A stretch of DNA of 64,000 nucleotides from Candidatus Thorarchaeota archaeon (GCA_048882485.1 JBHLRP010000002.1:6527-70526), one strand, 5' to 3'. Counted from the first letter of the stretch, positions 41,160 to 60,535 are shown. Program-made: numbers and translations. The notes: generated by a model not told the origin, from the letters alone.

Positions 41160-41274
41160 AATGCTTCCAGAAATAGGCTCCCGGCTTCGAATTCATTTAC
41201 GAAAAAGCGCGCTTTATCTGGTAAATTTATCCTCAAACAAGATTTGCTTAAATATGTATTAATGGCTACTAATT

Positions 41275-41352
41275 GTGAAGGGTTTAGGGGCCGTTCTCTC
41301 TCATATCTCTCTCTCCTCCTTCAAGCGTTCTCCGGCCCCGCTTTTCCCTTCT
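41275..41352 (+). ncRNA. candidate small RNA 1 (closed stem, CU-rich loop)
   Basis: TTAAATA at 41248, 27 nt before GTGAA; GAAGGG/CCCTTC and GGGGCCG/CGGCCCC stems enclosing a 39-nt CU-rich loop. Confidence 0.45.
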
Positions 41353-41476
41353 GCTCAATTTTCTCACGGGAGAAGTCATTCATCCTTTTTGAACAGTTTA
41401 AGTCGGCCTATAGCCACTCATAGATGCTAATATATAATATGATAAACACTTATATACTAGTTATACAATACTCATA

Positions 41477-41580
41477 GTGAACAGGGAGTCCGAAACCCTC
41501 TCCTCTCCTCCCTCTCCCTCCTCTCAATCATCTGTCAACGAATACACGCGCTGACAAACTCTTTCTCGGACTCCCTGTGC
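41477..41580 (+). ncRNA. candidate small RNA 2 (closed stem, CU-rich loop)
   Basis: TTATATA at 41450, 27 nt before GTGAA; perfect 13-bp stem ACAGGGAGTCCGA/TCGGACTCCCTGT enclosing CCTCTCC repeats. Confidence 0.5.
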
Positions 41581-41660
41581 GAATCCCATTCTTCTTCTGT
41601 CACCGCCAATGACGGCAGGTTTTAAAGGCAAGCCCAAGTCGGCAATCCAAGGCGAGCGAA

Positions 41661-42101
41661 ATGTCGACTGCAAGGAAAGCGGTAGATAGCACACTACGGA
41701 GAATCCTGGTCTATACAGCTGAAATCATCATGTCCATTATCCTGCTAGTGGTAATTTGCATTCCCCTATCTTTTGGAATTCCAATATGGTTCCAGTCTGT
41801 TGTCCTTGGAGCCGCAGGTAATGAGCTAGTAATCAACCCTGTTGCGTGGTTTGGTACCAGTGGTGCTTTCTGGGTAACACTTGCACTATCATTGGTAAGC
41901 ATATTCATTGGCTATTTCTATGTCAACCGACTTATCCCCTCTACTGATATAGATGAGGACGAAGAGGAGGAAGAAGAGGAGGAAGAGGTTGATGAAACAG
42001 AGCCCGAGGAGGAAGAGGACGCAGACAAGGAAGAAGAAGAGGAATTTGAAGAAACCACTGATGAAGTCGCCTCTGATTCCGAAGAGGAAGAGCTTGATTA
42101 G
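41661..42101 (+). CDS. two-TM membrane protein with long acidic tail
   Basis: Two hydrophobic helices; Glu/Asp-rich C-terminus. Confidence 0.7.
   Translation: MSTARKAVDSTLRRILVYTAEIIMSIILLVVICIPLSFGIPIWFQSVVLGAAGNELVINPVAWFGTSGAFWVTLALSLVSIFIGYFYVNRLIPSTDIDEDEEEEEEEEEVDETEPEEEEDADKEEEEEFEETTDEVASDSEEEELD

Positions 42102-60130: not shown

Positions 60131-60535
<405 letters not shown>

Follow-up and report, generated by a model that had tools for sequence, protein, structure and literature searches.

What is encoded in the longest intergenic gap of this stretch of Asgard archaeal DNA, and what might its products do? The stretch, called the window below at its full length of 64,000 nt, comes from Candidatus Thorarchaeota archaeon (GCA_048882485.1, JBHLRP010000002.1:6527-70526), whose genome (3.96 Mb) is 90.5% complete. 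With a crude ORF set, the longest gap in the window extends over 501 bp (41160-41660). The initial annotation had placed two tandem units of the same design in this gap, given there as 500 bp, and all of their features were found where it had put them. As read from its sequence, the gap consists of two predicted, independent small non-coding RNA genes on the plus strand, each with an archaeal TATA promoter of its own. It is very probable that both units are transcribed as structured RNAs.

Architecture of the two units

Both units have a GC-rich end-to-end helix around a long C/U-rich loop, followed by T-rich sequence. As first described, the TATA boxes (TTAAATA at 41248 and TTATATA at 41450) each lie exactly 27 nt from a GTGAA, which is located at 41275-41279 in unit 1, counting from the first T of the box, and at 41477-41481 in unit 2. 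GTGAA as the start held for both units here but not beyond the closest relatives, in which the start is merely purine-rich; a TATA-like box at the same distance from the start was present in every family locus inspected. The pairing of the 5' and 3' ends, over 6+7 bp in unit 1 and a perfect 13 bp in unit 2, is also present, and the predicted folds agree with it. The features of the locus are as follows.

41216-41247, plus strand: block upstream of the unit 1 TATA box, near-invariant in the genus (13 same-genus loci aligned) and partly kept in a second genus
41248-41254, plus strand: TATA box of unit 1 (TTAAATA), first T 27 nt before the purine-rich start; invariant in the genus
41275-41362, plus strand: putative unit 1 small RNA gene, about 80-90 nt, from the fold, covariance model R1 and covariation; ends predicted
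41277-41282 with 41346-41351, plus strand: outer helix of unit 1, 6 bp (GAAGGG/CCCTTC)
41287-41293 with 41333-41339, plus strand: inner helix of unit 1, 7 bp (GGGGCCG/CGGCCCC)
41294-41332, plus strand: open loop of unit 1, 39 nt, C/U-rich, from the fold
41310-41322, plus strand: loop core of unit 1, TCTCTCCTCCTTC (RNA UCUCUCCUCCUUC), containing CCTCCT; at least 90% conserved in the family alignment
41359-41362, plus strand: T-run of unit 1, likely terminator, from the sequence
41450-41456, plus strand: TATA box of unit 2 (TTATATA) inside the conserved ACTTATAT motif, 27 nt before the start
41477-41600, plus strand: putative unit 2 small RNA gene, about 100-120 nt, from the fold, stem replacement and covariation; 3' end uncertain
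41481-41493 with 41566-41578, plus strand: closing helix of unit 2, perfect 13 bp, from the fold
41496-41525, plus strand: C/U tract of unit 2, 30 nt of pure C/T, from the sequence
41533-41540 with 41549-41556, plus strand: internal hairpin of unit 2, from the fold
41560-41565, plus strand: U-rich stretch of unit 2 directly before the 3' arm, from the sequence
41620-41628, plus strand: TATA box of the downstream gene, TTTTAAAGG; the AGCAAGTTTTAAAGG motif before the gene is conserved in all loci
41661-42101, plus strand: gene for a 146-aa protein that has two hydrophobic helices and ends in a poly-acidic tail, from the translation

The minimum-energy fold of unit 1 is that of the described helices with the loop unpaired (z of -2.9 against dinucleotide shuffles). 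Across the family, the inner helix reads G4-5CC/GGC4-5 with compensatory variants, and the outer 6-bp stem is weaker, 87.9% of the cells being paired versus 96.7% in the inner helix (31 sequences). The loop often begins with UCUCUCUC; the 13-nt core, near-invariant in the family, is followed by a GU-UCU element. The 32-nt block at 41216-41247 is conserved to the same degree as the RNA itself and is partly common to genus g5, in whose loci the motif GTAAAT..TATCC....ATTTGC recurs upstream of unit 1. The block is possibly a regulator site plus BRE, a function that we infer.

In unit 2, the minimum-energy fold is the described helix with the C/U strand unpaired (z of -4.9 against dinucleotide shuffles); the helix closes a loop of 72 nt and is followed by a pyrimidine-rich tail. 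The 30-nt tract is the fourth longest C/T tract in the 3.96-Mb genome, and the internal hairpin is genus-specific and deleted in one relative. Across the family, unit 2 consists of the closing helix, a C/U tract variable in length and sequence, and a small variable 3' hairpin, and the CTTATAT motif before it is kept across genera. A U-run stands immediately before the 3' arm in most genera and is missing in three. A T-run follows units 1 and 2 in most genomes of the family; the window's copy of unit 2 has no T-run of at least 4 after the helix, and its relatives have one. T-runs of 5-7 are also found just before the 3' arms in several genomes, and these might end transcription ahead of the closing helix in some of them. 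Because the arms covary, at least part of the transcripts would include the 3' arms.

The genome's longest pure C/T tract lies elsewhere in the window (60247-60311, plus strand). It is 65 nt long with a TCC/TCT-type period, and a poly-Glu coding run probably lies on the opposite strand.

In the conserved helices, G-U pairs on the plus strand are in excess over A-C pairs (27 against 11, and 6 against 1), A-C pairs being the wobbles of the minus strand. Because of this G-U excess, of the TATA boxes at archaeal distance and of the T-runs on the plus strand, we take the plus strand to be the RNA strand; an RNA read from the minus strand is disfavored on the same three grounds. The antisense of unit 2 folds more stably (-38.6 versus -26.7 kcal/mol) because the internal hairpin has an A-C on the plus strand, and this hairpin is not kept outside the genus. 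ORFs of 51-59 codons overlap unit 1. The loops of the units carry 2- and 4-nt indels among relatives, which break every frame, and a coding reading is therefore excluded; the small ORFs at 41244-41423 and 41275-41430, which were considered and rejected, have no Pfam match either.

The initial annotation had named a known RNA family or a MITE as what would speak against it. Neither was identified: the comparison with Rfam, at E-values up to 10 between 40500 and 42500 and at gathering scores over the whole window, gave no match beyond chance. BLAST of the gap against the whole genome returned only the gap itself, and each model had one match. The units are single-copy and therefore not a repeat family, by which a MITE or other repeat is ruled out. 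No tRNA or tmRNA was found at the locus. A C/D box sRNA was rejected, since no C box (RUGAUGA), D box (CUGA) or K-turn was visible and no Rfam C/D family lay inside the units, and neither an H/ACA nor a bulge-helix-bulge circularization motif was seen in the unit sequences. A retron-like non-coding RNA was rejected because the neighbors include no reverse transcriptase; there is no transposase gene nearby either. When the genome was scanned for the same design (an ORF-free C/T tract of at least 12 nt with a bracketing stem of at least 8 bp), only unit 2 had a TATA box. We regard both units as uncatalogued, predicted small RNA genes of one Thorarchaeota family (Asgard archaea).

Outside the window, an ORF-free hairpin at G000:C1:322479-322564 has a 12-bp closing stem around the C/U tract CUCUACCUCCCCUUCCUU. 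A simple pattern found no TATA box there. The design is similar, and the hairpin may be an additional small RNA.

Distribution in the family and covariation of the stems

Of 16 same-genus genomes, 12 have the gap, and the four without it are 62-81% complete. In the same-genus alignment there are only two conserved islands, each made up of a promoter and its unit, and the intervening spacer and the flanks are unalignable. Covariance model R1, which describes unit 1, found exactly one copy in each of 21 of the 26 same-family genomes. On 124 other genomes of the phylum, R1 gave nothing credible; the weak matches lay inside long ORFs, and occurrence outside the family was rejected because such matches are due to chance.

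Unit 2 diverges faster than unit 1, and its first model had matches in three genera only. When the sequence downstream of unit 1 was read, unit 2 was found in almost every locus as a CTTATAT box, about 27 nt, a closing helix of differing sequence, a C/U-rich loop and a T-run, and the broader model R3 detected it in nearly all family loci. Unit 1 is 2-3.5 kb away in some genomes, in which unit 2 still adjoins the downstream gene. Walking upstream from this gene recovered both units in genera that the models had missed, with stems that are wholly new (AACTCAAGAGTCA/TGGCTCTTGAGTT, AAAGGCACGGG/CCCGTGCCTTT and CGACCCGA/TCGGGTCG). Predicted copies of unit 1 by the model, and of unit 2 by model plus synteny, extend over the family and occur in nearly every genus.

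Pattern scans of the metagenome and genome collections gave many chance matches in GC-rich bacteria. In the genome collection, 21 records were confirmed by the model, of which 16 are titled Candidatus Thorarchaeota archaeon and the other five Promethearchaeota, Hermodarchaeota or 'uncultured archaeon'; the metagenome scan gave 8 model-confirmed contigs, which come without organism names. JBHLLF010000003.1, titled Candidatus Hermodarchaeota archaeon DZ1M.409, has a unit 1 copy near-identical to that of the window (99.3 bits), and its taxon label is probably a misfit.

The initial annotation had argued for a structured RNA family from an architecture that is kept while the stem sequences differ. 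This argument is strongly supported by conservation, by the placement of promoters and terminators, and by compensatory changes in the copies that the genome-wide and cross-genome search found throughout the family. Standard pairs are formed by 94.1% of the cells in unit 1 (31 sequences) and by 91.8% in unit 2 (alignment A8, 36 rows, two of which are cross-matches of unit 1), with two-sided changes at 6 of 10 and 8 of 9 pairs, respectively, in alignments that were fitted to the model structure and so favor it. None of 500 shuffles reached the covariation score of unit 1, and none of 500 that of unit 2. When the 3' partners were slid by one column, the paired cells fell to 72-74% in unit 1 and to 61-69% in unit 2. 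Stem replacement is independent of the alignment: 19 distinct closing-stem sequences of unit 2 occur across the family, and stems are swapped outright between genera (GGGAGTCCG, GGGGACC, GGGTGACCC, GGGGCTCAC and AACTCAAGAGTCA). At individual loci, 0-11% of the shuffles gave a stem of at least the observed quality.

Each unit's model weakly matches the other unit (E of 2e-4 and 0.05-0.6). Units 1 and 2 are probably old tandem duplicates, a view with which the cross-matches are compatible without proving it. Loci of other genera contain a third small RNA, next to unit 1 and in the opposite orientation (L206:2413-2581, L213:2315-2447 and L042:1738-1861, in relatives G024, G042 and G120). Its terminal helix is GAGGAGCGCC/GGCGCTCCTC, its loops contain CCUCUCCUCC and CCCUCCUG, and a TTTTAAAT box of its own is present. 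A motif search and BLAST did not find this divergent RNA in the window's genome. Just before the unit 1 promoter, same-genus relatives have a remnant-like string, GGCGCCAAAA.

The gene for the 146-aa protein is present in 25 of the 26 family genomes, always downstream of unit 2, and matches outside the family were only marginal and contained stops. The TATA box at 41620-41628 means that this gene has its own promoter. The protein matched no Pfam family above threshold, only sub-threshold ones; several orthologues lack its tail, in which about 50 residues are mostly Glu/Asp. A locus search of genome contigs with this protein found nothing. The RNAs and the gene may be linked in function, or just by position.

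The C/U-rich loops and their possible partners

Because the paired ends expose a pyrimidine-rich strand that copies the mRNA-docking sequence of the ribosome, an action on translation is probable. The window's assembly has no SSU rRNA, and two family members stood in for it; in both, the 16S 3' end is ..ATCACCTCCT (..GGAUCACCUCCU; tail GAUCACCUCCU). By these tails, the core of unit 1 holds the exact anti-Shine-Dalgarno hexamer CCUCCU. GGAG/GAGG peaks 11-15 nt before first ATGs, with 140-250 counts per position versus a background of about 30. The claim that the loops are complementary to the GGAGG/GAGG Shine-Dalgarno sequences used here is thus correct as a matter of sequence, CCUCCU being the core of the 16S tail. 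Start regions (about 3500) pair with the loops about 3 kcal/mol better on average than internal windows do, an advantage that any CCUCC-bearing RNA would show.

In these two 16S genes, the last helix ahead of the anti-Shine-Dalgarno tail contains inserted sequence, located between GTAGCGG and the terminal ..ATCACCTCCT. The insertions are about 95 nt in G098 (L070, contig C2) and about 30 nt in G019 (L071), and may be an expansion segment or an intron.

The open strand is conserved and accessible, so we consider it to be the business end of these RNAs. It would pair with the purine-rich Shine-Dalgarno regions of mRNAs in competition with the 30S subunit and thereby reduce the initiation of translation, possibly with the aid of an Sm-like protein bound to the U-rich stretch beside the 3' arm. 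Taken by itself, such masking of ribosome-binding sites is plausible from the complementarity. The joint statement, that the gap contains two small RNA genes and that their products mask ribosome-binding sites, is held tentatively and falls a little short of probable. Several observations weigh against masking. The 13-nt core is longer than Shine-Dalgarno pairing needs, and fits a protein or other fixed partner at least as well; CCUCC is absent from unit 1 in 3 of about 31 family members; and the T-runs of 5-7 before the 3' arms could stop transcription before the closing helix forms. The target prediction against Shine-Dalgarno regions that the initial annotation had suggested did not advance its proposal, as core complements, duplex energies and the neighbor's start gave only the generic Shine-Dalgarno signal and no target that was specific or conserved. 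A full-length complement of the core near a start occurs once in the genome, and the start region of the neighboring gene is not a preferred partner (percentile ranks of 0.04 to 0.96 in 11 genomes). Pairing of the loops with the neighbor's poly-Glu codons was rejected because several orthologues lack the acidic tail.

The excess length of the core, together with the absence of a conserved complement in the genome, leads to a different reading, in which the C/U strand and maybe the U-rich stretch bind an Sm-like, KH or other protein, and the RNA titrates or assembles that protein rather than pairing with mRNAs. An Sm-site-like U-rich stretch precedes the 3' arm in most genera, the genome has three LSM-domain genes (contigs C23, C51 and C14), and several sister RNAs with repeated C/U motifs would suit a multi-site design. 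However, no candidate partner is encoded beside the RNAs, and the only conserved neighbor is a small membrane protein without a recognized RNA-binding domain. Sm-like proteins prefer U-rich over C/U-rich RNA, and the U-rich stretch is missing in three genera. We consider a role as protein sponge or scaffold somewhat unlikely. If Sm-like protein binding is true, it would bear on the early history of Sm RNPs.

In a further reading, the RNAs are something other than ordinary mRNA-pairing regulators. They would then form a Thorarchaeota-specific class of RNP, in which free copies of the 16S 3' tail with an Sm-site-like U-run are held open by the closing helix, are bound by Sm-like proteins and act globally. 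They would compete with ribosomes for all Shine-Dalgarno-led mRNAs, or hold these in reserve. We regard this as improbable; if true, it would be an Asgard example of an Sm-bound small RNP in translation control.

The position of unit 2, directly upstream of the 146-aa protein gene in all genera even where unit 1 is 2-3.5 kb off, and the common taxonomic range of the RNAs and this gene would also suit cis-acting control parts of the gene, that is, a leader or attenuator RNA or transcriptional interference. However, a conserved BRE/TATA belonging to the gene separates unit 2 from the gene's start, and T-runs follow unit 2 in most genomes. The start region ranks anywhere from 0.04 to 0.96 as a pairing partner in 11 genomes, and the acidic, GA-rich tail, a possible pairing partner of the loops, is absent from several orthologues. 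Cis control is quite improbable.

Y-RNA-like or vault-like RNP RNAs, as relatives or analogues of eukaryotic small cytoplasmic RNAs, had been among the options of the initial annotation. The size of about 80-105 nt, the 5'/3' pairing, the pyrimidine-rich internal loop and the clustered genes, each with its own promoter, accord with this option, and the GGUCCGA that relatives have in the 5' arm of their unit 2 presumably resembles Y RNAs. Nevertheless, Rfam gave no match to Y_RNA (RF00019) or Vault even at an E-value of 10, and the 90.5%-complete genome has no TROVE/Ro60 (PF05731) gene, for which the control genomes were positive. La and vault-repeat (PF01505) genes were not found either, which is weak evidence because the controls were negative too. 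The perfect helix has no conserved bulged Ro-binding site, and its sequence is freely replaced (19 stems). The option did not hold up without a Rfam match, a Ro60/TROVE gene or a conserved bulged helix, and is very unlikely. Finally, terminal inverted repeats bracket each unit and the 51-59-codon ORFs overlap unit 1, as DNA-level elements (a MITE, a recombination site or a protein-bound palindrome) or a small protein-coding gene might have it, but each unit is single-copy, pairing is kept through G-U wobbles that exist on the plus strand only, and the indels break all frames of ORFs that have no Pfam match, so this last explanation is hardly credible.

Comparison with known small RNAs

Full-text literature searches found no paper on these RNAs or on any Asgard small regulatory RNA. 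Models R1 and R3 can be used to annotate the family in new Thorarchaeota genomes. If masking of ribosome-binding sites is true, the RNAs would offer a handle on translation control in organisms that are not yet routinely grown.

Y RNAs with Ro60 are alike in size, paired ends, pyrimidine-rich loop and clustered genes, and differ in that the units here have no model match, no accompanying Ro60/TROVE gene and no conserved bulged helix. In Firmicutes, the sRNAs with C-rich motifs (RsaE/RoxS, and the UCCC loops of RNAIII and Rsa RNAs) bind several mRNAs at their G-rich Shine-Dalgarno sites through unpaired C-rich motifs. They differ from the units in being bacterial, with short hairpin loops and intrinsic terminators, and share no homology with them.

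Among archaeal RNAs, sRNA41 of Methanosarcina mazei (and also sRNA154 and sRNA162) is intergenic and separately transcribed, and sRNA41 is proposed to pair with ribosome-binding sites and thereby repress translation (PMC5867862). The units are likewise intergenic and archaeal, putative stand-alone transcription units with a conserved TATA box at -27 and T-runs after them, and in the predicted folds they too have an accessible region complementary to ribosome-binding sites (unpaired loops with CCUCCU, against GGAG/GAGG). The sequences are unrelated, however, and the Methanosarcina RNAs have measured expression and identified targets (PMC5867862), whereas the units are predicted genes. Those RNAs are genus-restricted regulators of nitrogen and carbon metabolism, and an end-to-end closing helix is not described in the review (PMC5867862).

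The cuckoo RNAs of Alphaproteobacteria (RSs0680/CcsR1-4, the alpha-r14 group) have two to four hairpins side by side, each 24-50 nt long with a 9-27-nt loop, and masking of ribosome-binding sites has been proposed for them (PMC4615179). As in the present locus, sister RNAs are clustered in one intergenic region by a conserved gene of unknown function, and compensatory changes dominate their stems, with sequences that are little conserved outside the genus (PMC4615179). The sole conserved sequence is in both cases an unpaired, anti-Shine-Dalgarno-like C/U loop motif, CCUCCUCCC there and UCUCUCCUCCUUC plus C/U tracts here (PMC4615179). The exact form of CCUCCUCCC is absent from the units, in which similar strings are CUCCUCCUU (unit 1) and CCUCUCCUCUCCUCCCUC... 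(unit 2). In nearly all genera of the family, one and the same family-specific gene follows the pair, an arrangement that is analogous to that of the cuckoo RNAs and not homologous. The cuckoo RNAs are bacterial and built of adjacent hairpins, whereas each unit here has one end-to-end helix, which closes a 39-nt loop in unit 1 and a 72-nt loop in unit 2; there is no sequence or model match between them, and each unit has its own archaeal TATA promoter. By this analogy, the cuckoo/CcsR RNAs are the nearest described design, a likeness that we attribute to convergence and not to membership. If masking of ribosome-binding sites is true, the two Thorarchaeota RNAs would be a case of convergence with the cuckoo and RsaE-type RNAs of bacteria, in the archaeal lineage most closely related to eukaryotes.
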